Shown here: positions 1 through 49,149 of the stretch, in pieces
Layout: every line of letters begins with the position of its first letter
Position numbering within the stretch: the stretch's first letter is position 1
Source of the DNA: Blasia pusilla
Lineage: Eukaryota
Assembly (NCBI GenBank): GCA_050084515.1
Contig: CM114271.1
Span: 25,730,001 to 25,794,000, forward strand
Direction of reading: 5' to 3'
Length of the DNA: 64,000 nt
The notes under the pieces: model-generated
Database searches by the model: none
Seen by the model: only the letters and a program-made list of their open reading frames with translations
Told to the model about the DNA's origin: nothing
Translations under genes and position numbers: made by a program

Positions 1-2
1 TA

Positions 3-164
3 GTAGTTCCTGCAGGCTTACGTTGTATGTTGTGTGGTTCTGCCCGTGGTGCGGCCACGATGCTAGTCTGTGATGGGTGTTCGAGAGGATGGCATATGGC
101 ATGTTTGACGCCACCTCTCACTAGGGTTCCTCAGGGACGATGGATGTGTCCCAGATGTAGATAG
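3..164 (+). CDS. PHD finger at C-terminus of retrotransposon integrase (partial)
   Basis: Manual translation VVPAGLRCMLCGSARGAATMLVCDGCSRGWHMACLTPPLTRVPQGRWMCPRCR* shows the C4HC3 pattern; homologous to 11300-11446. Confidence 0.9.
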   Translation, partial: VVPAGLRCMLCGSARGAATMLVCDGCSRGWHMACLTPPLTRVPQGRWMCPRCR

Positions 165-344
165 AGAAGGTAGTTCTATATTCCGACTTGTGTCTATGAC
201 ATGGATGACAAGGAGGCGACTAACGATGGGGCCACATGAGCACCCGGCCTTCTTGCTCTTAGCGTCCGAGAGATGTATGTCATGGTAGGTAGGGATAGAT
301 GGCTATCTAGAGTTAGAGGGACCTAACCACTAGCTAGGGGGGCG

Positions 345-1119
345 ATTGGAGATATTTTGGTTCTTCTTGTCTCGTTTTTTGGATGCCATGAGTTAGCATG
401 GGATCATGCGTGTTTGTGTGTGTGTTTGGTGACAGCGATGTATGTTGTGTAGCGATGTGTATGCGCACGACAACTGTCACGTCTTTTAGGATAGATCGGT
501 GGGATCTAATAGAGCGCCTTCATGAGTAGTGGAGGACACACCCAAAGATGGGGTCGAGGTGACTGCTTTGAGGCCCTTGGAAACCTGAGATAGCAGATTT
601 CCCCTTCGTTTCGGCTCATTTGGAGCCATATTGAGGAACTTACTATTTTAGGTAAGTACCATTTTGAGTATATGATCGACTTACTATTTTTGGTAAGTGG
701 CCCTTGACCTCCTACATCAGGTCAAGAGCCAAGGAGGTGACTTGGGAGAATAGGTTACCATGGAGAGAGCTTGGGAGAGGAGAGGGGTATACCTCAAGGA
801 GAGAGAGCTTGAGAGCTCATTCTCTCTTTGTTGAACCTCTTGGCATGAGGCGGCGGAGCTATGGTACCTTGCCTTGTGAGTGTAACCCAAGCCTCTCATT
901 AGGAGAGTGGGTTTGGTTTGACATGAGAGAGAGTGCACACCTTTGAGAGCTATGGTGTGAGATGGTGGAGAGAGAGATTGGATCTTACTTTATTGGAGAT
1001 ATTTTGGTTCTTCTTGTCTCGTTGTTTGGATGCCATGAGTTAGCATGGGATCATGCGTGTTTGTGTGTGTGTTCGGTGACAACGATGTATGTTGTGTAGC
1101 GATGTGTATGCGCACGACA
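345..1119 (+). repeat. Split terminal repeats of copy 1: B1(345-472)-AC-A2(475-991)-B2(992-1119)
   Basis: The 128-bp block attggagatattttgg...gcgcacgaca occurs twice. The intervening A block starts TGTCAC and is homologous to 57233-57741 (reverse complement). Confidence 0.92.
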
Positions 1120-3269
1120 GCTTGAATCAAAAGGAGTTAAGGGTTGAATTATATCAAGTTTTAAAGGATGTCATGCATCGACATGATGTGGATGGTCGAA
1201 GGGTTGGGAGACGCATTGTATTACCTTCTTCTTTTACTAGAGGGCCACATCATATGCATCAATTGTATCAAGATGAAATGGAAATTGTAAGACATTTGGG
1301 GAAGCCAAACTACTTTTTGACAATGACATGCAATCCTAAGTGGGAGGAGATTACACCAGCCTTATTACTTGGTCAATCAGCTGTGGATAGACTAGATCAG
1401 GTTATACGGGTTTTAAGAAGAAAAAGAAGGAGTTGTTACAACTTATCATTAACAAGAAAATATTGGATCGAGTTCTAGGATGCATCCATGTTGTGGAATT
1501 TCAAAAAAAAGATCTCCTGCACGTGCATGTTCTTATTATTTTAGGCCATGAGGATAAACCACGAACCACTTTTGATTATGATAGTATTATTTCAGCATAA
1601 ATCCCCAATCAATCTACCCATCCAAGGTTGTATTCTACTGTCGCTAATTGCATGATTCACGGGCCATGTGGAGTATTAAATCCAAGTGCACCATGTATGG
1701 ACAAGGAAACCAAAAAATGTACCAAAGGCTACCCTGAGCCTTTTGCGGCTAGTACCACAGAGATGGAAGATGCTTACCTGATCTATCACAGGTAAGGAAC
1801 TTTTCATCCTAGATTATTTTTATGACTATAAGGGATATGAGGCCAATGTGATGATTTCATGCTTTGTAATTTTATTTTTTTAGATTGGAGAATGGGAGGG
1901 CGATACTTAAGCGCAAACATTCATTGGATAATCGTTGGGTTGTGCCCTACAATCCTATGTTCTGCGCGTTCTTTGATTGTGACATTAATTTGGAGAATAC
2001 AAGTAGTGTTTATGCCGTCAAGTACTTATATAAATATGTATATAAGGGGTCTGATGTTGTATCATTTAAGTTGTCAAAGGATACATCCGACACAATTGAC
2101 AGTGTTGACGAGACGACGTCATATCTTGATGCAAGGTAAGATTGTGCTAATTGATTGTTGTGTTGCATGATATTGAATTCATCAACTTTACTTCATTCTC
2201 CTTACTTGAATATTTGGAATTATTATTTTTCCAGATATATTTCTTCTTCTGAGGCATGTTGGCGACTCTTCAAGTTTAGTCTACACGTTGAACTTCCAAG
2301 TATTGTACAATTAGTAGTTCATTTTCTAGAACAACAAGAAATCTACTTCAATTATGTTGATCCTCCTCAACAAATTTTGCAACAAAATAGAGAGACAACT
2401 TTGACAAAATGGTTTGCAACCAATCTACTTGATTCCAATTCCCGAAAATATCTATATGTAGATTTTCCTTCATATAATTGTTGGAATAACAAGACATGGA
2501 TTCTTAGGGTACAAAAAAGAAATGATTGTGGCCATCCTATTGGCCGCTTATACCTTACTCATCCAGGTGAATACGCTTGATTTTGTTTTTCACCATCTAA
2601 AGTGATGTATTTATATTGGGATGAATTGATTTTTTTCACTTCTTCGTAGGTGAAGGAGAACTTCATTGGTTGAGATTACTTCTCCGTCATGTTTGAGGAG
2701 CAGCGCCATATGAATGCTTGAGAATTGCCAATGGAATATTAGGTCAAACATTCAAGGAAGCTGTTATCCAAATGGGACTTCTCGAGGATGATAGGGAAGT
2801 GTTCTCTTGTTTTCAAGAAGCTTCTATGATCCGTACATGTTCTTCACTTCGCCGTCTATATGCAATCATTCTAGCGTACAACTTATCTGCTCAACCTACA
2901 ACCTTATGGACTCAATTCTTGGACCCATTGGTGGAAGATCTCTTATATGAACGACGTTAGGTAGGAATTCATTACCTTCACTCCTTACATCATTAGTTTT
3001 ATTCCTAATAGTATCTTCTTTTGAGCATTCAAGAAACTAGTCATGATTTGGGCTTTTTCTCGAACTGTTGTATTGCAGAAAATAGGAATTCCTAATCTTC
3101 CTATTGATGACGATATCATTAATAATGCCTTGTTGTAAGTTCATTATTATTTACAAGATCAAGGAAAGGGACTATCTGACATTCCTGACATGCCCCAAGT
3201 CAATTTCCAAAGCCTTCACTCACATTCATATTTGGAGGAGCAAGAACTATTATGTGATACGGAAGAATT
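1120..3269 (+). pseudogene. Helitron Rep (HUH/Y2) domain, intron-containing, frameshifted
   Basis: Motifs GRRIVLPSSFT, FLTMTCNPKW, VVEFQKKDLLHVH (HUH), KYLYKYVYKGSD (Y2), RYISSSEACWRLF and TFKEAVIQMGLLEDD. GT-AG introns e.g. 1792-1883 and 2136-2234. Confidence 0.92.
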
Positions 3270-3637
3270 TTTCATGACCATACGGATTATGTCGTAGAGT
3301 AAAGTGTGCTAGTAGAGGCCATACCTTATGTAGGACCGTAGTGGCTAGGTAGAGATGCGGTTTTATACATAGGGTTGGGGGTTACTCAGTTGGGGGTGCC
3401 TTTCCCAGTAGGGCCCGCTCTTAGGTTGGAAGATATAGTGTGGCGTGCACCCAAAGAACAATCAGTTCTTTGAGTTGAGCCTGTTGCGTTGGGAGTTAGC
3501 CTTGGTAGTGAGTAGAGCTCTTGGCTATAATTTTTCCCGCAAGCTTCGACCTAGATTCTCCCATCGCGGAGTGGGTTTGGCTCGATTGTATGTGATTCTA
3601 TACGTGTTTTATGATAGTAGGTCTTTCAAGGATTTCA
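3270..3637 (+). repeat. A1 terminal repeat of copy 2 (direct repeat of 11728-12080)
   Basis: Colinear high similarity to A2 with one indel of about 15 bp. Start TTTCATG here versus TGTCATG in A2. Confidence 0.93.
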
Positions 3638-3649
3638 CTCAAAGAACTG
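3434..3649 (+). promoter_or_regulatory. Putative TATA/Inr promoter and self-priming primer-binding site
   Basis: TATA 3434-3437 and Inr-like TCAGT with A at 3464. cagttctttgagt (3463-3475) is the exact reverse complement of actcaaagaactg (3637-3649) at the A1 boundary. Confidence 0.75.
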
Positions 3650-4803
3650 GAGTAGATCGATGGTAGCTTCGATTGTGGATCAGTAGGATCTCGTTAGGGT
3701 TGATTGTGTACTCAGCCATGGATGTTTGTGGCTTGTGGCCTATGTTGGAGGTAGGAATATGGTGCATGGTTGATTGGGAAAGAAGCGCCTTGCTGAGAGC
3801 TTTCCAACGTGCTTTAGATCGCCGGATTTCGTCAAGGGAGTTGGAAGTTATCAAGGATTGAAGATTCTGGTTAGCGTTCGACGGTTTTCTGATGTGGAGA
3901 GCTTGGAGTGCGGAAGCTCTGTTGAAGTTCATCCAAATCGGGTGAGAGGTTCCTGTTGCTACTTGTATTGTGATCTCATGTGAAGCTATCTGCTCAAGTG
4001 TGTGGAGCGTTGCAGATTTTTGCGTGCATGAAACTGGGCGGAAGCGCTGTCGGAGACTTCGAGGCAACTCATGGTAGCTCGGGGCGAGTGAGCGTGAGAG
4101 GCGGAGTAAGGAGCAAGGAGCAAGCAAGAAAGCTTGCTTGCCTGGGCGTGAGGCAATTTTTGCAGGATTTGTGATTTGAGTGTTGCATAACTAGTCATCC
4201 ATCTTTGGGCTATTCTGCCTGGAAGACGCTTAACTGCTGAGTTCTTAACTATGCCAGTGTACACACTGGTGTAGCTCATTTGGTGCTATTTGGAGATGTG
4301 TTAGGTGTTTATGCATCTCAAGTTTTTTGGTTGATGGAACTCTAGTGCATACTATGGTGTAGCCTCTCCATGCAGATGATATTTTCAGGTGCTGCGAGTC
4401 CGACTAGCACGTCATCGACTGCTGGCGGAGTAGCTATTGCGTTAGAATTGTGTGGTGGGTTCTATGGATTCAGGGGGCGCCACGTTTGGTGGATTGTGTT
4501 ACCTTGATTTCCATTTGTGATTGGAGGGTTGTCGTTGGACTTCCTGTGTTTGGATCCCCTTCATCGTTGCTTCTTGCTTGCGCGCCCATTGTTAGGGTTC
4601 ACGTTGATTTCCAGAGTAGTGTTACTCCTGTGTGCTACCGGTAGTGAGGCTGGAGTGATGACGAGTAGACCGTGGGAGGCTTCTTGTGGTGCTGACAGGT
4701 TAGGTTGCCTACACCCATAGCTAGTAGAGCTAGAATAGTACAGCGACATCGACGTCACTTGGTTACTTAGTGGTGGTGATTTGGTGGTGGTGCGGCATCG
4801 GCG

Positions 4804-6328
4804 TTGGTCATCACGGAGCTGTCTGGTGGTTTGTTTGGGGACCGTGGTGCGGACAGTGGTGGTTTCACACAAATTGGATTGAGGTATCGGCTACCTTTTC
4901 CACTTCCGACGGTTGATGAAGAGGAGGACGAGGGTGTTCCAAACACCGAGTCTTCTACGTTGTTATCGAGTGTTGCAGCTCCATTGATTTGGGACATGGA
5001 CGGGATATATGGGGCCATGAAGGGCCCACGACGATACTCGGGTGCAGTGGGCACCATTGAGTTGGAGGACTTCCTGCAAGAGTTTGATACGTGGTGTGAT
5101 ATGCAGATGTTGCAGAACGCCACGTTGTTTACACCCTTCTTGGCTTGGAAGGGGTTGTTTCAGCACTTGGAGGGACCACCCATGGACGATAACCATGAGT
5201 TTAGGAAGGACCATGTTGCTGAGATTGAGGCGTGGAGACAATATTGGTCTCCAAGCTATGTGTCTATCACCCATGGTGGTATTGGTAGTAGTGCTCCTAC
5301 TATGCCAGCCAGCCCGACGTTGAGTGGTACGAGTACGAGCCGGATTGGGGGTACCAGTGGGGGTACTAGTGGAGGTACTAGTGCCCCACCATCATTTAGC
5401 CCGGTTGCACAGTTCTTCAAGAGGTTGAAGAAGAACTATCAAGGAGTGAAGACAGAGAAGTTGAGAAGTCTTCAGGAATTTGAGCGAAAGACTTGTGAGA
5501 GTCTTTGTGTATGCCACGCTTGATTTCAGTTACTCAGGGTGTGACTGAGGCTTAGGCAGTCCAGTTTTGGTATGGGATCTTGGACAGAGAGTTGCGCCGT
5601 AGGGTACGTGATGCTACTCTTATGAGTGATGATTCACCCACATTGACCCATGTGTTTGCTCTATCTGAGAAGATTGAGCTTAACATGGTGAAGGAGAGAG
5701 TGGTGACATCCACATTCAGTAGGGATACAACTACTACTTCTCGTGTTCAGCAGCCCACCTCACAATCTCGTAGTAGTGGTGGTGGTAGTAGTAGTGGGAG
5801 TCGTGGGGGGTACACACGACGTTAGTCAGGTCCTAGAGGGACACTTTGCAGAGACCATTGCCTTCATTTGCTGCCCTGCAGCAAGGACATTCATGTTGGA
5901 CATGTGGAGGTCTTCATGTTAGGAAGTTGTGTCCCCAAGAGGATGGGAGACGGACTTTGGAGGATGGGCCTCAGTCGGCCCCAACTCAATGTGATCATTG
6001 CGGGAGACCAGGTCATCCTCGAGAGCGTTGGTTTGATCTTCATCCAGAGTTAAGATCAGGCCGCGGCCGTGGTGGAGTAGCTCCGAGAGGCCGAGGTGGT
6101 AGAGGTGGTAGGGGTGGTAGAGGTGGACTAGTGGTTGGAGAGCCTACAGTGGCTACCCCTACCACTACGACAGAGTCAGCTATGGCTTCCAGGATTGAGC
6201 AATTGGAGCAAAAGTTGGCTACTATGGCTGGTATCCAGCATATATCAGGTTCGGGAGCAGGGGCTTCCACCTCTTATGGAAGGGATGATCTCTCTTATAT
6301 GGCGAGTGCAGCACAGGTTGAGGCATGA
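4804..6328 (+). pseudogene. gag-like polyprotein with two Zn knuckles and RGG repeats
   Basis: Segments IELEDFLQEFDTWCD, CWTCGGLHVRKLC, CDHCGRPGH and RGRGGRGGRGG; interrupted by stops. Confidence 0.8.
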
Positions 6329-6439
6329 GCTGCAGTTACGAGAGGAGCCACTCGAGCGTCAGAGCCACGTGATGCTATTGTGGAGTTGGACCCATAGAGG
6401 GGTGAGGCTGGGAGGCAAGCTAGGCTTCCCCAGTCATTC

Positions 6440-7516
6440 TTGTTTTCTGAGGTGCTTAGGACTCCATCCATGGTTCCTACGCACCCTATTGAGCCGACAG
6501 TGGGGACTGAGGCATCTACATCGCGTGTAGTAGACACGGATGCAACATCCAGTGCAGTATTACGGATGGAAACTTCAGTGTTGGGATCCCCATTGTTTTC
6601 GACCACGGAACTGATGGCTTTAGGAGTTGACTTAGCTCCTGTATTTCAGCTAGCAGCCACGTTGTGTGAACGTGGGGGTATTATTGCTACACATGATGAG
6701 GTGGATGAGGGTGTTACGGTGGAGCGGCCCTCTATATCAGGTGTAGCATTGAGTACCAGTGCTACTTGGCAGGCAGCAGCGGTGAAGATGGATGCATTAC
6801 CAGCCCGGCCAGCCATTGATCGTGAGAGGCTTACACCTTGTGTATATATGTTGGACAACCGGAGTGGGATATTTCGATTGGTGAGTCCTACAGGACAAGT
6901 GTATAGACCAGATAGAGTATTGTTAGACTCTGGTGCCCAACCTTTGATGTTGGGAAAGGCGGCATGTATTGGTTTGGATATTCGGAGGTTAGAGCTTGAG
7001 CCTTGCCCATTCCAGATTCAAACATCACTTGGAGGAGCCAATAATAGGTCTCAATTCACGACACGGGAGAAGTTTTCTGTACAGTTGAGACCAGATCATG
7101 CGACTGATAGCTCCCGGTTGGGAGTACCTACAGTGGTCATATCAGCCGAGTCGTATGATGTACTAGTTGGAGGAGCAGTATTGTACCCGATGGGTTTTCA
7201 GATGGATTACTGGACTGAGACAGCGTCTTATACACCTGGTTGGCAGTGTGGGGATGGACGTATGAGCCAAGTTCCTGTGAGATTTATTTATGGGGCTCGA
7301 CCAGGAGGGTCTTCCCCAACAGTGTTAGCATTTGTGGCTAGTTTTAGTGGAGTAGTCACTTGGCCAGGAGACTTTTTGGAGGGTAATGTTTCTGCTATGG
7401 ATTCTCCTGTGCATGAGGAGGTCCCTAGTTTTGCAGTAGTGGCATCCTCATCGTTGGATGTGCCACTTTGGAGTTCAGGCGGTGCACTACAGCAGGAGGT
7501 TGATCGCCTAGTGTAG
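6440..7516 (+). pseudogene. Retropepsin aspartic protease region
   Basis: RVLLDSGAQPLML (D-S-G) and YDVLVGGAVL. Confidence 0.85.
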
Positions 7517-7603
7517 GAGGCTTGGTGTGAAGCTGTTATACCTCACAAGAAAAAGGAGGCCCCACGGCAGAGTCCTACTTCTGGTCTAGTTGGGTTATCC
7601 CCT

Positions 7604-8070
7604 TTGGATACTACACCCATTGTATGGCAGTATCCGCCGGAGGGCATTTGTGTGTTAGATCTCTTTGGTGGGATTAGCACTGGTTTGGTTGCAGTGTCGC
7701 AGGCCGGTATTCCTGTGCGGAGATACGTGTATGTGGAGCGAGATGAGACGGCCCAAAGAGTCTCATCCCGACATATTGGTCAGTTGATGCGGAGATATCC
7801 TAAGTTTTTGCCACCATCATCTATTCGTGGGTACCAGCGTGCTTTGCCGTCACACATTGTATTGTTGGGGGCGCAGGACCTTAAGAGGGTTGGTCCTGTG
7901 GATTTGGTGATTGCTGGATGGCAATGTGCGACAGTTGGTGGAGCCTAACGCTGATGAGAGAGAGCGTGCGATGGGATTTGCTACTGGTGTGACAGCCGTT
8001 GCTTCCATTTCTTAGGCTTCACGACGTCATGTGTTGGGTCAGGCCATAGACCTGAATTCTTTGACTTGGA
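7604..8070 (+). pseudogene. DNMT3-like cytosine-5 DNA methyltransferase domain (internally deleted) within pol
   Basis: Motif I VLDLFGGI, motif II YVERD, motif IV DLVIAGW.C. A deletion then joins to motif IX EPNADERERAMGFATGVT and motif X RRHVLGQAID. Confidence 0.85.
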
Positions 8071-8332
8071 TTTTGAGTCTTGGTATGGCCGAGCAGCGTC
8101 GACTTCGGACTATGTCTGTGGGTCTTCCACCCCTTGTAATGAGCTCGATGGTTATTGGGATGGTAGAGGCATCGGCTGGGGGTGAGGAGAGTAGTATTTT
8201 GCATCCTTGGAGTGAATGGAATGTAATGGCTGGGCATGTGGAGTTGGTTGCTCATGCTGGTGGAGGGTTATTTGCTCAGATGATGGTGTAGCTAAGGGTG
8301 TACCATCTTGTGAGGGGGTTGCGTAGCAGCCA

Positions 8333-9800
8333 ATGGCATCATCCTCTCCCTCTAGTGTGCCAGTGGAGGAGACTTGGGAGCCATTACTTGGGCCCAAGCT
8401 TACGGGAGGTGAGAAACGACGCTTGACACAGTTCCTACATTCTTATAGGAGTTGTTTTGCCTTTAGCATGAAGGATTTGGGTGCTCTGGTTGGACTCGGT
8501 ATACGGATTGAGTTGGCTAGTGATACACCAATCTTTCGTCGTCCCTATCGATATAGTGATATGGAGAGGGACCTGATTCAGGGTAGGACGTTAGACCTTT
8601 TGGAGGCTGGATTAGTGGAGTTGTCGCATGGAGAGTATGCATCAACCACTGTTATGCCTGCTAAAAAGGATATGCATGGAAACTACACGGATAGGCGGAT
8701 GTGTGAAGATTACCGTCCTATCAATTGGCAAACCAAGACCGATAGGTATGCCATGCCTACAACTGAGGAGATCTTTGATGTGGTGGGACAGGAAAAGATT
8801 TTCAATACTTTGGATCTTCGGGCACGATACCATCAATTGCCGATTCGGGAGAGTGACAAGGCCAAGACAGCATTTTGGGGTGTCAACTCTCATGGCAAGG
8901 ATTGTTTGTACCAGTGGAAATTCTTACCCTTTGGGTTGAAGAATGCACCTTCCGAGTTTCAGAGAGTGATGGACAGGATCCTAGCAAGGTTGGATTTTGT
9001 TCGGTGTTACATTGATGATATCTTGGTGTTCAGTAATATGGTCGAGGAGCATCAGATATATTTGCAGATGGTGTTTGAGCGGTTGAAAGCTCATGGTCTA
9101 CGTTTGCATCCGGGAAAGTGTAAGTTCTTCCATGAGGATGTTGAGTACTTGGGTCATGTGATCTATCCAGGTGGTTTGGGAGTTCAGCAAGCAAAGGTGG
9201 AGGCTATTGCACTTATTCCGCGTCCGGTAGATGTGAGTAGAGTTTGGGCATTCATGGGATTGGCGAACTACTATCGGAGGTATGTGAAGGGATTTAGTGC
9301 TATGGAAAAGCCTTTGAACCAATTGCTGAAATCAGATCAAGAGTGGCACTCGGGAGATGATCAGGAGAGAGCTTTTGTGGAGCTTAAGGCCCAGTTGGTG
9401 GCGGCGCCTATCTTGAGGAGACCTATCGAGGGCGCCCATTTACATTACACATCGATTGGAGTAGGTTGGGACTTGGAGCGGTGTTGACACAACATGATGA
9501 TGAGCACATGGAGTTTGTGGTGGCCTATGCAAGTCATTCGAATAATGCAGCGGAGTCGCGCTATATTTCATATGAGGGAGAGTGCTTGGCAGTAGTGTGG
9601 GTTGTGGCACACTTTAGGTGTTACTTGTTTGGCACACAGTTTACCCTTGTTACTGATCACCAGCCGCTCAAGTGGTTGATGGAGTCTGACAAGCTTATAG
9701 GGAAGCTTGCACGGTGGGTTCTTATCTTATAGGAGTATGACTTCTAGGTGGTACATAGACCTGGAGTTGCCAACCTTGATGTTGATGGGTTGAGTAGGAA
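8333..9800 (+). pseudogene. Ty3/Gypsy reverse transcriptase + RNase H
   Basis: RMCEDYRPIN, LDLRARYHQL, LPFGLKNAPSEFQRVM, YIDD, YLGHVI, YEGECLAVVW, TDHQPLKW. Confidence 0.95.
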
Positions 9801-10026
9801 CCCATGTACTAGCCAAGAGGATGCAACTGGGGCTAGATGGCATGGCAAGGTTGATGAGGAGGTGGTGCCAGGTTGGCATGCATCTGCCTTTTTATGTTGG
9901 TTAGGGGTGGACTCTAGTATGGAGGACCACATGACATCTTACTCTAGTCAGAGGGTAGATGGCCATCCTTCATATCCTTAGGTTAGAGATGGTGGTACGG
10001 ATCAGCGTGATATTCATGATGATGCG

Positions 10027-11446
10027 TTGGTGTTGGAGTTCCTACGGACTAGTAGGGTGCCAGGCATATTGAGTGCCAAGGAGCGAGACCGTGTTCTTCA
10101 ACGTGCTAAGAGGTATCGATTGGAGGGAACACATATTCTCCGTGTGTGGGAGGATGGTAGAGTACGAGTAGTGCCGTATTTGGCTCAGAGAGAGCGCATT
10201 GTGCGACATGCCCATGAGGAGTTGGGACATTTTGGGGTAAAGCGTACGTATAGCTTACTCCTTGGTCAGTATTGGTGGCGTGGCATGCAAACTCAGGTGC
10301 AGCAGTTGGTGTCACGTTGTATGGTTTGTGATTGGGTGAGGGCATCATTCAATGCCCCTACACCACAGTTACACCCCTTGCCTATTATGGGGTTGGGTTA
10401 CCGTTGGAGTGTGGACTTTGCGGGACCGTTACCGTTGATTGTACGACATCATCGATATGTGTTGGTGATGGTGGAGCACTTCTCCAAGTGGATTGAGTTG
10501 GTGGCATTACCTGACAAGGAAAGTGAGGGAATGGCGTACGCGTTTCTTGATAGAGTGCTTAGTCATTTTGGTGCACCAGCTGAAGTGTTGACCGACTAGG
10601 GTACAGAGTTTCAGGGTGAGTTTCAGGTCTTGTGTGACAAGGCGTTGATTGATCATCGGACCACATCTCGAGATCATCCAGAGGCGGATGGTTTGGCTGA
10701 GCGTGTGGTTCATACGGTGAAGAGGGCATTGCGCAAGCATGGCCTCTGAAGGGCATCTTGAGACAGGATATTCAGTTGCCATGGTTAGCCATGGGGTATA
10801 GGTTCAGTCGCCAAGCATCCTTGGCTTCCTTCTCACCTTATTTTTTGTTATACGGCCGAGATCCAGACTTGCCAGCATCAATTTGTCGGGAGTCTAGTGA
10901 GGTGGTGAACCTTGATGACCTAGAGATGTGGATGAGGGTGTGTTCTCAGCGGGCAGAGCTCTTTTGGAGAGTTATGCCAACAGCCTTTGAGAATCTTGCC
11001 ATTTCTCAACATAGAGATACGTTGCGGTATGCAACAATTCGAGGTGGAGGTTATCGACCATCGATTCGTAGGTTCCATGTAGGGGACTATGTCTATTTGC
11101 AGCAGATTGCACCGACAACGTTGGATGTGACGGCAGGCCGCACTATTTTACGAGTGCACGAGGTGTTAGCTTCTGGAGTTCTCATGTTGGAGGGTCGTGA
11201 TGGAGTTGTTTGGAAGGACCATGTGCGTAATTGTGCGCCATGTCATCTTCCAAATGTGGATATCTTATTGACCCAAGCTTAGCCATGATACGTGCTAGCT
11301 TGAGGTGCATGTTGTGTGGGTTTGCTAGTAACGCAGCCCGTATGTTGGTGTGTGATCGGTGTTCTAGGGGTTGGCACATGATGTGTTTGACTCCACGTAT
11401 GGATGTTGTTCCTACTGGAAGGTGGGTTTGTCCTCGATGTATTTAG
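10027..11446 (+). pseudogene. DDE integrase with C-terminal PHD finger
   Basis: HHCC (HEELGH...CMVC), WSVDFAGP, VLTD*GTEF, DGLAER, PYFLLYGRDP, then CMLC...CDRC...H..C...WVCPRC. Confidence 0.93.
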
Positions 11447-11619
11447 GAGAGGTAGATGACTTGATCTTTGTATGATATGGATTACAGATGTGCGACTAAC
11501 GATGGGGCAACCTAGCACCCGGCCTTCTGATTCGTGCACCCACGAAGGTGTATAGCATGTAGTAGATGTATAGGGCTACCTGGGAGTTAGAGGGACCTAA
11601 CCGCCAGTTAGGGGGGCAA

Positions 11620-12186
11620 GTTGTGGTACACTTATGTTTGTGGATGCTCTCGTCTATGTTATGTATGTATATGAGTATGGTATGTCAACGATGTATGTTG
11701 TATGACGATGTGGATTCGCAGGACAGCTGTCATGATCATATAGATTATGTCGTAGAGTATAGTGTGCTAGTAGAGGCCATACCTTATGTAGGACCGTAGT
11801 GGCTAGGTAGAGATCCGGTTTCATACATAGGGTTGGGGGTGACTTTCCCAGTAGAGCCCGCTCTTAGGTTGGAGGATATAGTGTGGAGTGCACCCAAAGA
11901 ACAGTCAGTTCTTTGAGTTGAGCATGTTGCGTTGGGAGTTAGCCTTGGTAGTGAGTAGAGCTCTTGGCTATGGTGTTTCTCGCATGCTTTGACCTAGATT
12001 CTCCCATCGTGGAGTGGGTTTGGCTTGATTGTATGTGATTGTATACGTGTTTTATGATAGTAGGTCTTTCACGGATTTCAGTTGTGGTACACTTATGTTT
12101 GTGGATGCTCTCGTCTATGTTATGTATATATGTGAGTATGGTATGTCAGCGATGTATGTTGTATGACGATGTGGATTCGCACGACA
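11620..12186 (+). repeat. Split terminal repeats of copy 2: B1(11620-11725)-GC-A2(11728-12080)-B2(12081-12186)
   Basis: The 106-bp block gttgtggtacac...gaca is duplicated around A2. The B1-A2 junction is the palindrome GACAGCTGTC. Confidence 0.93.
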
Positions 12187-13790
12187 AATTATTTGAGCAA
12201 GTACAATTGGGAGAAGCATGTCTGAATGAATAACAACGTGTTATTTGGGATGCTATACATGATGAGCTTGATCAAATATGCATAAATGTTCCACCATCTT
12301 CAAAAGTATTTTTCATCGATGGTCCGTGTGCAACAGGAAAGACATTTCTATATAATCTTCTCCTTGCAAGCGTAAGGAGTGCGTATAGCATTGGTTGTAG
12401 CATCATCTGGAATACTTGTTTTATTGTAAGATGGAGGACGTACTGCACATTCGCGTTTCAAGATCCCCATCAATCTTCATGAGAGCTCTACTTGCAAGTA
12501 AGTGTCATTAACCACTTTACATGCAATTGTATTGATACATAAAGTTTAATTATTCCAATTATTACAACTTCTAATTTATTTTCCTTTGTCATTTATAGTT
12601 TATGAGTCGATGGTGATGGAGCATGCTTAATCCGTGCGAGAATGCTCATTATATGGGACGAAGCACCTATGACTCATTGTCATGCATTCGAGGTTGTGAA
12701 CCGTACTTTACAAGATATTATGGGAGTTATTTCTGATGATCTACGGCAAATACCATTTGGCGGAAAATTTATGATATTTGGTGGTGACTTTCGTCAAGTG
12801 TTGCCAATTATTCGTCATAGGGATCGACCACAAATCATCCAAGCTACCATAAAGAGATCACCTATTTGGTCCAATGTAAAGGTCATGAAGTTGAAAACAA
12901 ACATGTGAGTTCAAAGGTTGGAAGGTCATTTACGTGTTGAACAACAAGGTTTTGCTGATTGGTTATTGGAGGTGGGTGAGGATTGTGTACCTTTGCATCC
13001 AAATTTGGGAGAAGATTTCATAAAATTACTATCTAAAATTGTTACTGATAGTAATAAGATATCTGATCTTATTGATTTGATCTATGGCAATTCTCCTAGC
13101 CAATTCCAAGACATTGGGTTCTTGAGAAATACAACTATTCTGACTACAAGAAATAGAGATGTTGATGACATAAATACAGATGTTATGTCTCGATTTCTTG
13201 GACATGTAATCTTTTAACCTGCATACATCTTCTACATGGATTTTTTCTCTTAGGTTTTAGGATTTAGGATTGTTTTACTGACTGTCTTTACTAATACATT
13301 ATTGTTTCTCACGAATTTAGTACACATTGTACAGGAGCATATTTACCTCAGGGTCAAGTCTATTCCAAATGAGGGGATGAGTCATATCTATCCAACGGAA
13401 TTTTTGAACACATGCTTGCCTTCTGGACTACCTCCACATCGTTTAAATTTAAAGATTGGTGCACCAATCATGCTCTTACGAAATATGAATGGATCACAAG
13501 GACAAGCAAACGGGACGAGATTGGTGATTCGTGGATTTATGCAACATCATATAGATGCCAAATTATTACCGGGAAGAATATTGGCGATTGAGTTTTTATT
13601 CCACGGATTCCATCGGATTCTAGTCTGCCATTTGATTTACGCAAGTTTCAATTTCCTATTCGCCTAGCTTTTGTTATAATTATTAATAAGTCTCAAGGTC
13701 AAGCTTTGCAAAAGGTTGGCATTTACTTGCCTACTCATGTATTTTCTCATGATCAATTGTATGTAGCAGTATCCAAAATAGGGAAGAGAA
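12187..13790 (+). pseudogene. Helitron PIF1-like helicase domain
   Basis: [77 protein letters not shown]. Confidence 0.93.
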
Positions 13791-14376
13791 GTTTCATCCA
13801 CATTACCCTTGGAAGCGATGAACATTCAAGTAAAAATCACTACACACGAATTATAAAATAAAAAAAATACTTGGATGTTGGAGTGTTTTTGTAATATAAT
13901 TGTAAAATTTATTTCATCCAAGTATTTTTTATATTATACGTCACGGGAGTGTTGGAAATAAAAGGAGGTACGATAACGAGGGAGCTTGAAATTCTTTCAC
14001 ATTATATGGAAAAAAAAAAAACTTAATTATGTGGAGTATATTAATCTTTTCAATACACATTAACTCTCCAAACACTTTTTTTTTCGTGCATGCCATACCT
14101 TACTAATAATATAATATAGGTTTCTTGTTCACGAGGCAGCGGACAGCGGGCGTAGTTTGGGCCGGGACGGCGGGAGGCATGGACGGGGACGCGGGAGGGA
14201 GAACGGTGGGCGGCGGGGAAGAGAGGGGACGTGCTACATATCGAAACGGAGAGTGTGACGAGGGATTCATTTTGATCCGGACCTTAATGCATGGCGTGAA
14301 GTATTTTATTTTTATTCATCTTTTTAGAATTCGGTTCATATTAGGGTTCCAAATGTGAGTATTAGGGCTTTGCTTA

Positions 14377-15845
14377 TTGTCATTTGGAGAAATTTCCCAA
14401 GGTAACGTCCTCTATTCAACCATCCTTCCCCTCCTTTCCCAAGTCCTTCCTTGTTTGTCGTATTTGCTTCTCATTTTGGTTCGATTCACGTTTGTATTTG
14501 TTACCCCTCTCGTAGATACATCTTTCTTCTCATCTATTTTATCTCGATTGGCCCATGATCTTTCTACACTCTTAGCAACTCTAGGTATTCATGAGTTCAT
14601 TTTTGGGAGGGGGTTGGGACTAGAAGTCCTAGGTGATATCGGTAGGTGAGAGTTTATGTTAGAGGGAGCATTACCGTGGACGGTAAGAGAGTTGTTTGCC
14701 ATGACCGCTTGTTTGAATGGGGATGATAGGATTGTTATTGGCAGGGGATTGTCGCACGATTTTATTGCAGGGGGGCATGTCCTCTTCTTGGTGAGTTGCA
14801 TCCATGCCTCGACCCGCATTGACTCCCCGTGTGGGGACCCGTGGGTCGTCTAGTCGAGATACTAAATGCCCATGTTGTCCCGAATTCTTCACTCGTTCAG
14901 GAATTCGGAACCACTATGTCTGACTGGAATATCCCCATGGAGGTTAGGGCCCGTATTCGCTCTTGCTCCGGAAAGGGGGCAGACTCATGGGTAGGGGCGC
15001 GCCCCCTTCTCCCGGCTTTCCGTATCGCACCACTTACCTATACCACAGCGATGCGGTTGCGCTTGGGCCTCCCCCAACCATCGGTGGTTGGTTGGACACA
15101 CTGCGAGTGTCGCCGGAGCCTGGATCCACTTGGTATGCATTTGGCACGCTTTCCAATTGGGGGTGAGAAGATAGCCACTCACGATGTAGTGCAAGATATC
15201 ATGTTCACTATTGCTCGGGACAGTGGCTTCCATGTGCAGAGAGAGAGGCACTACTCCATGCAGGATTCCCTTATTCGAGTTGATCTTTACATGACACGAG
15301 AGGCTGAGGTGGTGGTGGCGGACGTGGTAGTTACAGATCCTACGCGGGAGGCAGTGCGAGCCCAAGTGGTGGCCCAAGGGCGAATGCTACAAGGAGCGGC
15401 GGCGGCGGCGGTGAAGAAGATACATATCTACATTCGACTTCACGAAGGACACATCTTCATCCCCCTGGCCATAGAGATGTATGGGGCTATGGGGGAGAGG
15501 TTTGACTCCTTCCTTACGAACTACGCCCATTATCTCCAATCGAGAAATGGGTTGTCCTTAGCTACTACGGTTCTCTATTGTAGGCAGCGGGTCTCCATAG
15601 CGTTGCAGTGCGCCCAGGCTAATGGGCTTTTGTGGCGGGCTCAGGCTATTGGAGACTCCAGCGCTAGAGGCCCACTTAATAATAGTCATAACTCTCTTGT
15701 TGTTGCTGATATTTTCTCTGTTGTTAGTGAATTTCGTCGCCAAAAGGAATACCCCCTTCTTTCTTTTCTGGTCTTGTTGTGGCCTTCAAGTTTTGACTCT
15801 TTGAATCCACCTCTTTTGTACTTCGGATGGGTTTTCCATCACACG
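14377..15845 (+). mobile_element. 5'-truncated CRE-clade-like non-LTR retrotransposon (Zn knuckle + restriction-like endonuclease)
   Basis: ORF 14829-15932 has MRLRLGLP, CEC...H, THD, RVD, ADV, KK, FIPLAIEMYGAMG and QRVSIALQ. The 3' UTR is shared with 16700-16822 and 59105-59260. The 5' boundary is approximate. Confidence 0.8.
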
Positions 15846-16519
15846 TTTTTATCAAAGTGCATCATTTTCTATGAGCGGCACCTTATTAGTTATAGCCCAT
15901 TGGGATACGTTTCACACAAAAGAAACAACTGAAGCGGAGCGGTACAAAACGTGAGAAAGCTCCCCGAACGTCCGTAACTTTTACAACGGCCCCAGAAAGC
16001 GTTAGAAAAGTCGGGGAAACTTTTAAACATTTAGCGGCAGCGCTAACCGCACCGATCTGCAGTGTTCTCCACGTGGCGACGAGGGGTGCAAGCACTTGCT
16101 TTCCGGGATGTGCCGTGTTCCGGAGCCCAGTACCGCCTCGATTCGCGGCGAGCCGTGCGCAGAGCTTGTCAGCAGTGCAGGCCCGGATCCGTTGGATTCC
16201 AGGATGGTCTAAAGGATAATACTGTCGACGGAGAGAATCCGTCTCCGTCGTCCATCCATCAATGATGAGCCGGATTTCCGATATGAATAGAGGAATGATT
16301 ATTTATTAATTAACGAAAGAAACAAACAACATAAAACAAAAAAATCATATCTTTGGCATCTACGCCTACAGCGCCTGTCTAGACTGAAGTCGACAATGGA
16401 CTGCTGCAGCGGCTCCACCTCCTTCCCAACGCTTTTCCCGTTCCTGCCAAACTCGGCCGGAGACGCCAGCTCCGATCAGCGGCTTGTCTTTGGCTATTTT
16501 TGTCCGGTGGGGCAGGCAC

Positions 16520-34330: not shown

Positions 34331-36432
34331 GAGTTGTTTAAACACAACTTCCCTAGTCGGATGATGGACATGTTGGTATTCTTAGAGAGTAAGCAGAAGC
34401 GAGTAGTGGCGGGTTTCATGAGGGTTTAAGATCGGGTGGTGTTAGAGTTAAACTCTTTTGGTGGAGAGGAGAAGTAACACTAGATCCAAATGTTTCCAAA
34501 TCCCATGATGTCAAAGCCAAGTACTCTCTGATGGAGGGAAGAAGGGAGGCCGGATCTGATGGTTTCCAAATCCAACGGTGTTGGAAGTAGGCTATTGTCT
34601 GGTGGGAGGAGAAATGACATGGGATCCATTGGTTTTCAAATATAGTGGAAAAATTATCATGATAAAATTAGTGGAGGCTAGTCATAGGGCAAGTGGCAAG
34701 GCAACCGTAGAGGCAAGTGGAAGAGTGCAGTTAATGTGAGGATAAATGGTTAGATGTGGAGGAGAATTAGAGCATGGGGAGCATTTGATGAATACTTACA
34801 CACGGATGGAGTTAGTAAAAGGTATTTTTCAAGAGTCAATGCATATAAGATAGTATGTAAGGGATACTTGGAAAAAGAGGAGAGAGAGGATAGATGTGAG
34901 AGAACTTATTAAGTGTTTGATTAGTGACACTCGTAAGGAAAAGCTATAACTTGTGATGCTCACTAAGGTGGGAAACTATGGATTTGGATATTTCTTGAAA
35001 GGAGTTATATCATATGAAGAGTGGTCTTGTGTCTTAAATTTTCTTCTTAGTAAAATATAAATATCCACGGGAATAGGGCCTCCCAACTTGGAGACCTAAT
35101 AAGTGAGAATTTGAATGTTTGAATGATGGAATATGTTTGATTATGTAAAGGTCTATCGAGATTGTAGTGCAGGAATATTGTTATGCGCATACACATCACT
35201 ACACAACATACATCACTGTCTCTGAACATATACAGAAACACGCACGATCCCATGCTAACTCATGGAATCCAAACAATGAGACAAGAAGTACCAAAATATC
35301 TCCAATAACTCAATGAAATCTCACATCAACATCTCACACCAAGCTCTCCATATGTGCACTCTCTCTCATGTGAGACCAAACCCATTCTCCTATTGAGAGG
35401 CTTGGGTTACACACACAAGGCACAGAGGACCATATCTCCGCCGCCTCATGCCAAGAGGTTCAACAAAGAGACAATGAGCTCTCAAGCTCTCTCTCTTGGA
35501 GGTATATCCCCATCCCTCTCCCAAGCCCTCTCCACGGTAACCTATGCTCGTAGGTCACATCCTGGGCTCTTGACCTGATGTAGCGGGTCAAGGGACACTT
35601 CCAAAAGTGGAAAGTAATATATACCAAAAATATTAACTTACTCAAAATAGTAATTTTCTCAAAATGGCTCCAAATGATCCAAAAAAAGGGAAAACCTGCT
35701 CTAAGAGGTTACCCGTGGCCTAAGCAAGTCATCCTTGACCTCTTGAGGATGTCCTCCAGTATCTCCAAAGTCGCTCTACTTAATCTTGCCAATCTATCGT
35801 AAAAGATGTGATTCTTATTGTGCACATACACATCGCTACACAACATATATCGTTGTCATGAACATACACATCAACATGCACGATCCCATACTAACTCATG
35901 GCATCTAAACAACGAGACGAGAAGTACCAAAATATCTCCAATCGTCCCCCTAGCTAGTGGTTAGGTCCCTCTAACTCCAGATAGCCATCTATCCCTACCT
36001 ACCATGACATACATCTCTCAAACACTAAGAGAAAAAATGTTGGGTGCTCATATGGTCCCATCATTAGTCGCCTTTTTGTCATCCATGTCACAGACACAAG
36101 TCGGAATTTAGAACTACCTACTCTATATACATGTGAGACACATCCATCATCCTTAGGGAGAGATGACGTCAAACATGCCATATGCCATCCTCTCGAACAT
36201 CCACTACGGACTAGCATTGTGTTTGCACCACGGACAGAACCATACAACATACATCGCAAGCATGTAGAAACTACAGCTAAGCTCGGATCAACTATATTGT
36301 CAATTTTAGGAAGGTGACATGACGCACACTTACGCACTTGGTCCTTCCAAACCACACCATCGCATCCCTCCAATAAGAGAACACTAGATGGCAGAATCTC
36401 AGGCACTCTCAAGATGGTGCGGCCTGTAGTAA

Positions 36433-46396: not shown

Positions 46397-46572
<176 letters not shown>

Positions 46573-48751: not shown

Positions 48752-48752
<1 letters not shown>

Positions 48753-48817
<65 letters not shown>

Positions 48818-49019: not shown

Positions 49020-49051
<32 letters not shown>

Positions 49052-49059
49052 TGAGTGAG

Positions 49060-49147: not shown

Positions 49148-49149
<2 letters not shown>

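Follow-up and report, generated by a model that had tools for sequence, protein, structure and literature searches.

How could an element with a DDE integrase be inserted when its terminal repeats are split, with segment A alone at the 5' end and B, A and B again at the 3' end? This question was raised by the 64,000-nt stretch of DNA analysed here (the window), which holds three copies of such an element.

Structure of the inserted copies

Positions 3270-12186 (copy 2) were confirmed as a single insertion unit of the order A1-body-B1-GC-A2-B2 (Table 1). A1 and B2 directly border unrelated flank on the 5' and 3' sides, respectively, and the ends are of the TG..CA type, enclosed by a perfect 4-bp target duplication (AATT). 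Ungapped blocks of the two A repeats agreed at 94% of positions; BLAST gave 89.9% identity over 366 nt and a single 15-nt indel. The two B repeats were 96% identical over 107 nt. A contig of the independent DNA run X2 links 3267 to 12190, omitting 3268-12189 (8922 bases), and carries a single copy of the target. This empty site may be allelic, or may belong to a paralogous copy of the Helitron into which copy 2 inserted.

Table 1. Features of the three copies in the window (positions are those of the window).
Feature	Positions	Strand	Basis or remark
Copy 1, end of pol (PHD finger ~18-149), tail, G-run	1-344	+	
Copy 1, 3' end: B1 345-472, AC 473-474, A2 475-991, B2 992-1119	345-1119	+	
Copy 2, target-site duplication, left copy (AATT)	3266-3269	+	Sequence; empty-site contig in run X2
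Copy 2, A1	3270-3637	+	Opens TT where A2 opens TG; no B upstream
Copy 2, TATA-like motif in A	3434-3437	+	30 nt upstream of primer-site complement; by eye from sequence
Copy 2, 13-nt exact reverse complement of primer site, within A	3463-3475	+	Predicted transcript 5' end (self-primer); 3' arm of local hairpin in fold
Copy 2, putative minus-strand primer-binding site, self-priming type	3637-3649	+	Begins at last base of A1
Copy 2, gag-like ORFs, decayed	4780-6325	+	Translation; CX2CX4HX4C zinc knuckle in ORF 5837-6325, read by eye
Copy 2, protease ORF, D-S-G motif	6398-7513	+	By eye resembles N-terminal part of Marchantia protein P0003
Copy 2, C5 cytosine DNA methyltransferase (DNMT) remnant, between protease and RT	7517-7945	+	58% identity, E 6e-49, to P0003 residues 351-475
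Copy 2, reverse transcriptase (RT, ~8687-9163) and RNase H (~9433-9729), one frameshift	8327-9729	+	RVT_1 1.3e-30; RT_RNaseH 1.2e-32
Copy 2, integrase: H2C2 zinc domain, DDE (rve) core, C-terminal part	9982-11279	+	Integrase_H2C2 7.5e-16; rve 5.9e-08; tblastn of P0036
Copy 2, PHD finger, polyprotein C-terminus	11306-11440	+	PF00628, 4.6e-11
Copy 2, G-run, polypurine-tract-like, adjoining B1	11606-11618	+	Sequence; same arrangement in all families inspected
Copy 2, B1	11619-11725	+	CA at end
Copy 2, 2-bp spacer GC, centre of CA-NN-TG palindrome	11726-11727	+	Putative internal integrase attachment site
Copy 2, A2	11728-12079	+	TG at start
Copy 2, B2	12080-12186	+	CA at element's 3' end; RNA depth low
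Copy 2, target-site duplication, right copy (AATT)	12187-12190	+	Sequence; empty-site contig
Copy 3, 3' end: B1 35942-35816, AG, A2 35813-35307, B2 35306-35179	35179-35942	-	
Copy 3, 5' end: A1 57741-57233, then primer site 57233-57221	57221-57741	-	13-nt complement within A1

Copies 1 and 3 form one family (83% identity over 1119 nt); what they share with copy 2 is confined to the coding tail and to ~45-65 nt at the end of B (80-85%). This agrees with the first-pass annotation, which had set copy 2 apart by its largely different A and B. The 5' end of copy 1 falls off the window; its B1 and B2 are 97% identical. Copy 3 is old and broken up by nested insertions, and its flanking 4-mers (ATCT / ATAT) match at three of four positions. 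All three copies have the full form, copy 1 being judged from its 3' end.

Coding region and relatives

The polyprotein order is protease, decayed DNMT, RT, RNase H, DDE integrase and PHD finger. The gag-like ORFs, the decayed protease ORF and the DNMT-remnant ORF of copy 2 gave no Pfam match of their own; aspartyl-protease Pfam domains are present in the relatives P0036 and P0041, and P0003 carries PF00145. The integrase ORF of copy 2 is split by a frameshift near 10600-10700. Its D, D and E residues, at 60- and 35-residue spacing, are invariant in 15 relatives. The best relative of solved structure was Ty3 Gag-Pol (9.7e-92). A tyrosine recombinase (PF00589) was absent from all window ORFs scanned; by eye, it was also missing from the tabulated domains of the 120 relatives listed. 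These domains bear out the earlier assignment to DDE-integrase elements of Ty3/gypsy type without a tyrosine recombinase; the RT, RNase H and integrase had been recognised in that annotation, whilst the DNMT remnant and PHD finger had been missed. The RT clade that contains the window's element is well supported and also includes two Klebsormidium nitens proteins. On balance, the element is probably a Ty3/gypsy-type retrotransposon of a streptophyte/green-alga clade, a judgement made jointly with the replication cycle proposed below.

Conservation of the layout

The A1-body-B1-NN-A2-B2 layout was also found at seven independent metagenome loci from another host. Together with the three window copies, of two families, this upholds the view that the split repeats are a conserved design. 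All four full, low-decay elements with both ends had a perfect 4-bp duplication (copy 2; L007, TCTC; L054, CATA; L075, AATC), which, with the empty site in X2, confirms the target duplications that had been suspected. In at least nine sequence families the G-run adjoins B1 and a GACA-NN-TGTCA junction lies 56-180 nt further downstream. Conventional LTRs at both ends of most genomic copies had been named beforehand as one finding that would speak against this design, and none of the 11 5' ends examined had B upstream of A. The mirror product, A-B-NN-A-body-B, was likewise found at 0/11.

B1 and B2 evolve in concert, sharing subfamily variants within an element, and no column separated B1 from B2 in seven pairs. 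The A2|B2 junction was precise in nine of ten cases. The other (L007 = L018) holds a 19-nt filler, a partial repeat of nearby A sequence, of a kind that end joining can leave.

Among the moss-type 3' ends that could be classed as either full or single-B, 10 of 17 had a single B followed by flank. These copies were as diverged as full ones (3.2-8.9% vs 3.8-8.9%), making assembly collapse unlikely. A-body-B elements with target duplications occurred at L008 (TGTG/TGTG) and, with three of four bases matching, at L039 and L045. Assembly-like oddities were noted at three loci: an inverted A after A2 in L051, an inverted tail plus B beside the leader in L057, and a circular-looking contig in L070.

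The repeat unit of reverse transcription

In copies 2 and 3, whose sequences differ, the primer site is matched within A by a 13-nt exact complement, at a distance from the A end of 162 nt in copy 2 and 157 nt in copy 3; complementarity of this length was reached in 0/2000 shuffles of each. The moss-type family also has the primer-site motif after A1, with a 12-nt complement in L039 (0/1000 shuffles) and, at the corresponding position, a 10-nt one in L075 and L045. Primer site and complement covary between families, and a TATA-like motif, read by eye, lies 30-31 nt upstream of the complement in all three. In the minimum-energy fold, the complement paired with a local hairpin arm and not with the primer site, and stability was not unusual (z -0.57).

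The tail and B1 had a sense-strand RNA depth of 117/195, which dropped to 35/59 across A2 and to 5.7/6.1 across B2 with its flank; reads spanned B-NN-A. RNA molecule starts piled up at 3430 (31 in X22, 27 in X23), the predicted start being 3463; the pile may mark the real 5' end, or a similarity boundary to expressed copies.

The primer site after A1, the TATA-like motif and the G-run before B1 support B-NN-A as the probable LTR defined by reverse transcription. The first-pass annotation had placed the LTR there from adjacency; the primer-site complement, the TATA-like motif, the G-run and the RNA drop over A2/B2 take the case further. Because the integrase ends abut inside such an LTR, the integrated form would be a rotation of the expected cDNA. 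A rotated form in turn suggests that the cDNA tips are joined, in a circle or its equivalent, and that the internal site is cut.

A proposed replication cycle with joined cDNA tips

From this anatomy we infer the exact transcript ends, the linear cDNA structure, a joining step and cleavage at the internal site. Transcription would begin within A1, ~160 nt before its end, and run through the body, G-run, B1 and the 2-bp spacer into A2, where most RNA would stop. The minus strand would be self-primed as in Tf1, the transcript start annealing to the site directly after A1, and the plus strand primed at the G-run before B1. Ordinary strand transfers would then yield a linear (B-NN-A)-body-(B-NN-A) cDNA, in which the integrase end sequences (TGTCAYG... 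and ...CRYGACA) would abut as the CA-NN-TG palindrome inside each LTR, not at the tips. Joining of the two tips would create the A2|B2 junction. The DDE integrase would insert the attachment site of the 5' LTR once both its strands had been opened, giving A-body-B-NN-A-B and a 4-bp duplication. Joining might come first, as a 2-LTR circle, or after insertion, by repair of free tips. Taken as a whole, a reverse-transcribed unit rotated relative to the ends used by integrase, with joined tips and a cut internal site, is somewhat the likeliest account. The combination of an ordinary retrovirus-type integrase with split, rotated end repeats in this bryophyte and green-alga family suggests end-to-end joining of the DNA copy ahead of its insertion.

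The 2-LTR circle had already been proposed in the first-pass annotation. It reproduces the structure logically, but its joining step is conjectural and a symmetric circle has two equal attachment sites, so the mirror form should be as frequent as the observed one, against none at the 5' ends examined. Deletion between the two close A copies of the mirror form could, however, turn it into the common A-body-B. Nine precise A2|B2 junctions in ten are tidy for end joining, which also counts against the proposed cycle, as do the single-B moss-type ends, the pile of RNA starts at 3430 instead of 3463, and the fold in which the complement pairs with a hairpin arm. In retroviruses, according to the sections of PMC11054761 drawn on here, the circle junction was abandoned as an integration substrate, a further point against.

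The single-B ends bear on the idea that A-body-B is the default product, integrase using the A start of the 5' LTR and the B end of the 3' LTR of linear cDNA, whilst the full A-body-B-NN-A-B is a minority product of another route, retained since it alone can be recopied. The A-body-B insertions with target duplications, and the 10/17 single-B ends with divergence equal to full copies, fit this idea. However, all three window copies are full, and single-B can form later, by B1-B2 deletion or from the mirror form. A joining step is still needed for the replicating form, so this alternative, which we consider unlikely, refines the proposed cycle more than it replaces it. Slightly less likely again is an end restoration of DIRS type. 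The internal B1-NN-A2 would keep the joined termini in store, much as the internal complementary region does in DIRS-1 and B1A2 in PAT/Ngaro, and would template completion or bridging of incomplete cDNA. With no (B-NN-A) LTR cDNA as an intermediate, this would directly restore a full A...B molecule, either linear or circular, for insertion by the DDE enzyme. PAT/Ngaro elements have the same repeat order, the B2 end followed by the A1 start reproduces the internal junction, some low-level RNA covers B2, and a model for DIRS-1 and the need for its internal region have been described (PMC7192593). Against this, the primer site after A1 and the G-run before B1 sit as in ordinary LTR elements and predict B-NN-A LTRs, most RNA ends before B2, and there is no tyrosine recombinase. 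A circle rebuilt in this way also has two equal junctions and so leaves the missing mirror form unexplained as well.

It is most improbable that a conventional LTR element was scrambled by misassembly, a nested solo LTR or local duplication, as the oddities in some metagenome contigs (L051, L057, L070) might suggest. The same order recurs in three window copies of two families and in seven independent loci of another host, with exact breakpoints, TG..CA ends, perfect target duplications and an empty site, and B1 and B2 covary by subfamily.

Relation to known elements

The claim that this architecture was undescribed for DDE retroelements fails in part, the layout having been noted once, in an alga. 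The Fig. 4c legend of de Mendoza et al. 2018 (Nat Commun 9:1341; PMC5890265) gives DIRS-like repeats for a Gypsy-type, DNMT-bearing Klebsormidium element. As described there, KnitGypsy-Dnmt3 of K. nitens likewise has a Gypsy-type Pol, an inserted Dnmt3-like C5 methyltransferase and the DIRS order A-coding-B-A-B. A PHD finger, primer site, internal CA-NN-TG site, target duplications and mechanism are not mentioned in the main-text portions of PMC5890265 consulted. The two K. nitens proteins in the window element's RT clade might possibly be KnitGypsy-Dnmt3 itself. KnitGypsy-Dnmt3 has an algal host, whereas best protein hits point here to a liverwort-like one; relatives occur in moss-associated metagenomes, and the DNMT is decayed in the window copies.

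PAT-like/Ngaro elements, including the non-autonomous TOC1 of Chlamydomonas, also show the DIRS order of split direct repeats, A1...B1A2B2, in which the joined termini are present once more internally. They are not known to make ordinary target duplications. By contrast, the window element has a DDE integrase, TG..CA ends and 4-bp target duplications. For PAT-like/Ngaro elements, which code for a tyrosine recombinase, integration is believed to start from a circle and to proceed through site-specific recombination (PMC7192593).

Self-priming is described for Tf1/Sushi and plant Tcn1 Ty3/gypsy elements in the passages of PMC6317226 used here. As in these, there is no tRNA-type primer site, and the site by the 5' repeat complements the element's own predicted transcript start. 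Compared by features, Tf1/Sushi and Tcn1 carry a chromodomain between LTRs that are conventional and identical, whereas the window element has split repeats and, in place of the chromodomain, a PHD finger.

A twofold-symmetric CA..TG junction of both integrase ends inside an element recalls the Panganiban and Temin 1984 model, in which the retroviral 2-LTR circle junction, built artificially, served as attachment site; as summarised in the same sections of PMC11054761, linear DNA is the retroviral substrate and circles are dead ends. Here, unlike there, the junction is natural, conserved and internal, with a 2-bp spacer, and linear cDNA tips cannot yield a provirus of the form observed. The IS3/IS30-type elements, bacterial DNA transposons without reverse transcription, offer an analogy of mechanism only: in their 'copy-out, paste-in' transposition the substrate of the DDE enzyme is a circle junction at which the inverted ends abut, a few bp apart.

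Boundaries and terminal repeats of the window copies

The first-pass annotation had mapped a retrotransposon at window positions 3270-12186, with terminal repeats A and B split as A1-body-B1-NN-A2-B2, where NN is a 2-bp spacer. Repeat finding and BLAST upheld this map for the element, hereafter copy 2. Unrelated DNA directly adjoins its A1 upstream, and AATT stands as the target-site duplication on both sides (3266-3269 and 12187-12190). An empty site was recovered from an independent DNA run (X2), in which a contig links 3267 to 12190 with a single base between, omitting 8922 bases; the 4-bp target is present there once. A single decayed Helitron hosts both copy 1 and copy 2, so the empty site may be a paralogous Helitron copy rather than an allele. 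In either case it fixes the boundaries of copy 2, and the entire stretch from A1 to B2 is one insertion.

The other full-form copies in the window, copies 1 and 3, belong to the same family (83% over 1119 nt). Their common sequence with copy 2 is confined to the coding tail and the final 45-65 nt of B; outside this stretch the repeats of the two families are not conserved. The 4-mers flanking copy 3 agree at 3/4 positions. No further copy of the clade was found within the window by tblastn with an intact relative as query.

Features of the window copies, RNA depth along copy 2, and 3' and 5' ends in the moss-type metagenome family (X22 and X23, stranded RNA runs; L numbers, metagenome loci, with merged loci joined by an equals sign)
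Feature	Position or loci	Strand	Details
A1, copy 2	3270-3637	+	94% identical to A2 in ungapped blocks; 89.9% over 366 nt; one 15-nt indel
B1, copy 2	11619-11725	+	96% identical to B2; terminal CA, then GC, then A2
A2, copy 2	11728-12079	+	starts TG
B2, copy 2	12080-12186	+	same terminal CA as B1; unrelated DNA directly after
3' end, copy 1	B1 345-472, AC, A2 475-991, B2 992-1119	+	G-run before B1; 5' part beyond window start
A1, copy 3	57741-57233	-	copy broken up by nested insertions
3' end, copy 3	B1 35942-35816, AG, A2 35813-35307, B2 35306-35179	-	
Helitron_like_N	1080-1475		just after copy 1
PIF1-like helicase pieces	12234-12905 and 13592-13858		after copy 2
RNA depth, tail, G-run and B1	11439-11745		X22 117; X23 195
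RNA depth, A2	11746-12052		X22 35; X23 59
RNA depth, B2 and flank	12053-12350		X22 5.7; X23 6.1
Full 3' end, tail-B-NN-A-B	L007=L018, L015, L017=L041, L019, L049=L054=L059, L050, L075		7 independent loci
Single B, then unique flank	L004, L008, L010, L016, L020, L025, L034, L038, L039, L045		10 independent loci
Damaged or odd 3' ends	L027, L046, L051, L055, L056, L057		6 loci
5' end, flank then A	L007, L008, L011, L023, L039=L047, L045, L054=L059, L067, L075		9 loci

Coding content and classification

The coding region of copy 2 is decayed yet recognisable, with Pfam matches to RVT_1, RT_RNaseH, Integrase_H2C2, rve and a C-terminal PHD finger. Both in the window and in intact relatives the Pol order is protease-RT-RNaseH-integrase, as in Ty3/gypsy (Metaviridae), and the best solved relative was the Ty3 Gag-Pol polyprotein (9.7e-92). 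Between protease and RT, a DNA methyltransferase (DNMT) remnant at 7517-7945 showed 58% identity (E 6e-49) to the PF00145-bearing part of P0003, a related protein from Marchantia polymorpha. This remnant was identified via relatives and not by Pfam, which left gag, protease and DNMT unmatched in the decayed window ORFs even at E up to 10. DNMT motifs are still recognisable by eye in copy 3. The intact related proteins P0036 and P0041 carry protease-DNMT-RT-RNaseH-integrase-PHD in a single frame, and the catalytic D, D and E of the integrase were invariant among 15 relatives. Since these elements encode both a cytosine methyltransferase and a PHD finger, they bear on the interplay between transposons and host chromatin.

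The absence of a tyrosine recombinase, as first reported, was confirmed: PF00589 was found neither in the 24 window ORFs scanned nor in P0003, P0036 and P0041. It was also missing from the precomputed domain lists of 120 relatives among the matches listed. The DDE (rve) integrase, 4-bp target duplications and empty site are those of a Ty3/gypsy element. The conventional arrangement, with identical TG..CA LTRs of which the 5' one adjoins the primer site and the 3' one the polypurine tract, was not found. Instead, 11/11 5' ends carry A only, 10 independent full 3' ends carry B-NN-A-B, and the G-run adjoins B, not the TG of A. By its proteins the element is thus a Ty3/gypsy member, yet it fails the LTR arrangement that defines the group. 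The split direct repeats of the DIRS order (PAT-like/Ngaro; A1...B1A2B2) are present, with a DDE integrase in place of the tyrosine recombinase. Because it lacks that enzyme and makes target duplications, the element lies outside the DIRS order.

The closest named proteins among the matches listed came from Marchantia polymorpha and Calypogeia fissa (77-78%), and more distant relatives among those matches from Sphagnum, Closterium, Klebsormidium, Chara and Volvox. A quick maximum-likelihood RT tree was built from 63 rows, comprising the window and 62 hand-picked sequences from the 120 listed relatives. It placed the window, Marchantia, Calypogeia, Closterium, Volvox and two K. nitens rows in a 39-row clade (SH-aLRT 99). 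PHD and/or DNMT domains occurred in 30/38 database rows of this clade versus 2/24 in the other clade. No relative was found in the viral contigs scanned.

Conservation of the layout in metagenome relatives

Metagenome contigs were scanned with a 15-protein alignment, yielding 274 pattern matches, 195 confirmed relatives and 80 loci that were kept. The parts of a well-sampled group of relatives, the moss-type family, were mapped by BLAST, and contigs with common flanks were merged into independent loci. The end motifs of this family are close to those of copy 2. Perfect 4-bp duplications (TCTC, CATA and AATC) flank the three full loci for which both ends are present. With window and moss-type loci pooled, 10 independent full 3' ends were counted, which bears out the earlier reading of a conserved design. 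At the 11 5' ends of the same pooled set, B was never found upstream of A, nor was A-B-NN-A.

Distant GC-rich relatives (L068, L070, L001, L002, L013, L031 and L063) retain the G-run, B, CA-NN-TG and A. They were dropped as evidence on integrated ends, because contigs with one B, or with A running straight into the leader, indicate collapsed or tandem assemblies and are uninformative on this point. In L070, an alga-like GC-rich relative, 3518 bases are repeated at 99.9% identity with a period of 8847 (286-3803 and 9133-12650), in the order body, G-run, B, GC, A, leader, body. Collapse of several copies during assembly, tandem arrangement or circularity could each account for this repeat. Inverted pieces were seen in two moss-type loci, an inverted A after A2 in L051 (3699-3876) and an inverted tail and B adjoining the leader in L057 (4965-5210). 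These could be assembly chimeras or real head-to-head rearrangements.

The internal CA-NN-TG junction

The outer ends of the element, TGTCAYG at the start of A and CRYGACA at the end of B, form short inverted repeats, and the same inverted ends recur abutted at the B1-NN-A2 junction. In at least nine sequence families the G-run is followed, after a further 56-180 nt, by a GACA-NN-TGTCA junction. As NN is mostly GC, the junction is mostly a 10-bp palindrome. The search pattern also matched unrelated places, namely an opposite-strand pol site in 10 loci and positions in L024, L039/L047 and L061.

Subfamily variants are common to B1 and B2, and when seven B1 and seven B2 sequences were aligned, there was no column at which the two sets could be told apart. 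The pattern is that of two copies taken from a single template in each cycle. The A2|B2 junctions were precise in 9/10 cases. In L007 a 19-nt filler at A2|B2 (10838-10856, equivalent to L018 2670-2688) partly repeats A about 30 nt upstream; the A1 of L007 is without it.

Putative primer site and transcripts

In copy 2, 13 nt counted from the final base of A1 onwards match the reverse complement of 3463-3475, within A, at every position. A different 13-mer occupies this place in copy 3, and it too is perfectly complementary to part of that copy's A. The distance from the complement to the end of A is 162 nt in copy 2 and 157 nt in copy 3, and for each copy 0/2000 shuffles reached a 13-nt match. 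Eleven decayed 5' ends of the moss-type family were tested for such complementarity. L039 gave a 12-nt complement (0/1000 shuffles) and L075 and L045 a 10-nt complement in the same place as in L039, while two ends had matches elsewhere and six had nothing above chance. The intact primer-complement motif was plain in most A copies inspected. By eye, all three families have a TATA-like motif 30-31 nt upstream of where the complement begins, and no site beginning with the complement of a tRNA 3' end was seen after A1 in copies 2 and 3. B1 directly follows a run of at least six G; this holds for the window copies, for the moss-type family and for six families further removed.

Folding of 3430-3660 left the primer site unpaired with its complement, and the stability of the fold was not unusual (z -0.57). 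At 3450-3475, and at the equivalent positions of the other families, a hairpin has the complement as its 3' arm and a repeat of the primer-site sequence as its 5' arm. The complement can thus pair within the hairpin or at the primer site, and this choice could work as a switch.

Two stranded RNA runs with the same species label as the window (X22 and X23) were used as raw reads. Both gave sense-strand RNA over the whole element. Most reads are 90-99% alike, indicating that they derive from relatives of copy 2. Reads link the end of B to the start of A, as B1-NN-A2 in RNA would give. Beyond loose read ends at 11615/11616 (97 and 54 reads in X23) the sequence is that of the start of B in the copy 1/3 family, so that family is well expressed. 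Starts of RNA molecules piled up at 3430 (31 and 27), inside A and 33 nt upstream of the predicted start; this pile may mark a true 5' end or a similarity boundary. No poly(A) site showed up in these reads. As the family is transcribed in the species of the window, its mechanism is testable in a tractable bryophyte.

Three RNA joins were seen in both runs, none with GT..AG ends: 5073 to 11056 (skipping 5982; 6+7 reads), 9970 to 10975 (skipping 1004; 16+29 reads) and 11570 to 11668 (skipping 97; 6+4 reads). They may come from expressed internally deleted copies or from unusual splicing.

In Tf1/Sushi elements the start of the transcript primes reverse transcription at a site next to the 5' repeat, as described in the available text of PMC6317226. 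In the elements studied here, the site next to the 5' repeat is strongly complementary to their own sequence and covaries between families, but the sole pile of RNA starts seen lies upstream of the complement.

A proposed replication model and its misfits

The first-pass annotation had proposed B-NN-A as the LTR defined by reverse transcription. The primer site after A1, the G-run before B1 and the fall of RNA depth across A2 all agree with this proposal. The transcript would start inside A and mostly end in A2, and ordinary strand transfers from these primer positions would yield a cDNA of the form (B-NN-A)-body-(B-NN-A). The provirus, A-body-B-NN-A-B, would be a rotation of this predicted cDNA, with the integrase ends internal and not at the cDNA tips. 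Joining of the tips would create the A2|B2 junction, and both strands of the junction in the 5' LTR would be cut. With a nick following each CA, at a 2-bp offset, the 3' ends would be recessed exactly like those inserted by DDE integrases. The tips may be joined before insertion, giving the 2-LTR circle first proposed, or after it, if insertion of a single junction leaves two free tips for repair.

In textbook LTR retroelements it is the tips of a linear cDNA that become inserted. In the elements studied here, the primer site and polypurine tract predict tips that do not coincide with the conserved integrase ends. An obligatory joined intermediate is a well-motivated proposal. That the whole clade, from green algae to liverworts and mosses, obligatorily integrates via end-joined (circle-junction) cDNA, cut at the palindromic CA-NN-TG inside the LTR made by reverse transcription, is a broader proposal that we advance tentatively and with slightly less than even confidence.

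Two observations bear on this proposal. A symmetric circle has two equal junctions, and cutting at the second would yield the mirror form A-B-NN-A-body-B, seen at 0/11 5' ends. Single-B forms (A-body-B) are common in the moss-type family, making up 10/17 3' ends scored as full or single-B; their target duplications are perfect in L008 and agree at 3/4 positions in L039 and L045. Assembly collapse is an unlikely cause, because single-B copies diverge from the family consensus as much as full copies do (3.2-8.9% versus 3.8-8.9%) and because B1 and B2 within full copies are only 89-96% alike. Single-B copies could be a direct product, if the integrase combines the A start from one LTR with the B end from the second, or they could result from later deletion between B1 and B2. 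They could also be remnants of the mirror form after deletion between its two close A copies; a symmetric cut would then agree with the counts of 10 full, 10 single and 0 mirror forms.

If circle-junction integration holds, a DDE retroelement would need a joining step deemed a dead end in retrovirology. The clade would then offer a natural instance of the circle-junction model that was given up for retroviruses. It would also parallel the copy-out/paste-in insertion sequences of bacteria, but in eukaryotes and by way of reverse transcription. Whichever enzyme carries out insertion, one replication logic might then underlie the split repeats of tyrosine-recombinase elements and of these DDE elements.

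Relation to known elements

The likeness to LTR retroelements lies in priming, and that to insertion sequences and DIRS elements in the retention of an internal copy of the joined ends. Composite, unequal LTRs are present in Dictyostelium DGLT-A. Standard LTR finders will miscall or miss the clade described here.

The first-pass claim that the architecture is new for DDE retroelements does not stand, since the layout of KnitGypsy-Dnmt3 from Klebsormidium nitens is already in print (de Mendoza et al. 2018, PMC5890265). In the portion of that paper available, the legend of Fig. 4c gives this Gypsy-type element a DIRS-like terminal-repeat order, and Fig. 1e shows the DIRS order as A-coding-B-A-B. 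The window copies resemble KnitGypsy-Dnmt3 both in this repeat order on a Gypsy-type element and in a C5 DNA methyltransferase inside the Gypsy Pol, decayed in the window. Common descent may explain these likenesses; two K. nitens rows, which may be KnitGypsy-Dnmt3 or other proteins, co-cluster with the window in the RT tree. The same portion of the paper contains no 'PHD' and gives no mechanism, primer sites, target duplications or internal junction.

A literature search for KnitGypsy returned the 2018 paper only. Searches combining split direct repeats, integrase and gypsy returned, in the text accessible, tyrosine-recombinase elements or general reviews only. Those for a PHD-finger retrotransposon with integrase in Marchantia returned nothing, and those for circle junctions with unusual terminal repeats returned no DDE element with this layout. 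PHD, methyltransferase and split repeats went unmentioned in the accessible parts of the Phygy/Selgy literature. The clade was absent from those of a plant LTR survey, in which neither PHD nor methyltransferase was found. No other description of split repeats on DDE elements was found in the literature searched. The split-repeat design is genuine, and the elements that carry it are conserved and transcribed. A relative with this architecture is on record, while a worked-out account of the replication logic is missing from print as far as the literature searches reach.

Other observations

Both window 1-12000 and the moss-type loci have a sense strand strongly skewed to G over C (GC skew +0.13 to +0.28). 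C>T or G>A accounts for most departures from the family consensus, with 9 to 25 such changes per copy and, in most copies, more than 2/3 of all changes. This excess is a signature of methylated-cytosine deamination, of note in an element that encodes a cytosine methyltransferase.

A conventional chromovirus (36427-42211, minus strand) is nested in the tail of copy 3. Its LTRs are ordinary (approximately 36433-36771 and 41883-42211) and its integrase C-terminus matches SH3_Tf2-1 and a chromodomain, so that the window itself supplies a conventional element with which the split-repeat ones can usefully be compared. Between its RT and DNMT pieces, copy 3 is interrupted a second time by a large stretch (44580-51766) that holds long CT/GA and GT-rich simple repeats (46378-46611 and 48719-49184). 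Beside the Helitron remnant, an open frame of 369 aa at 14823-15932 had no Pfam match.
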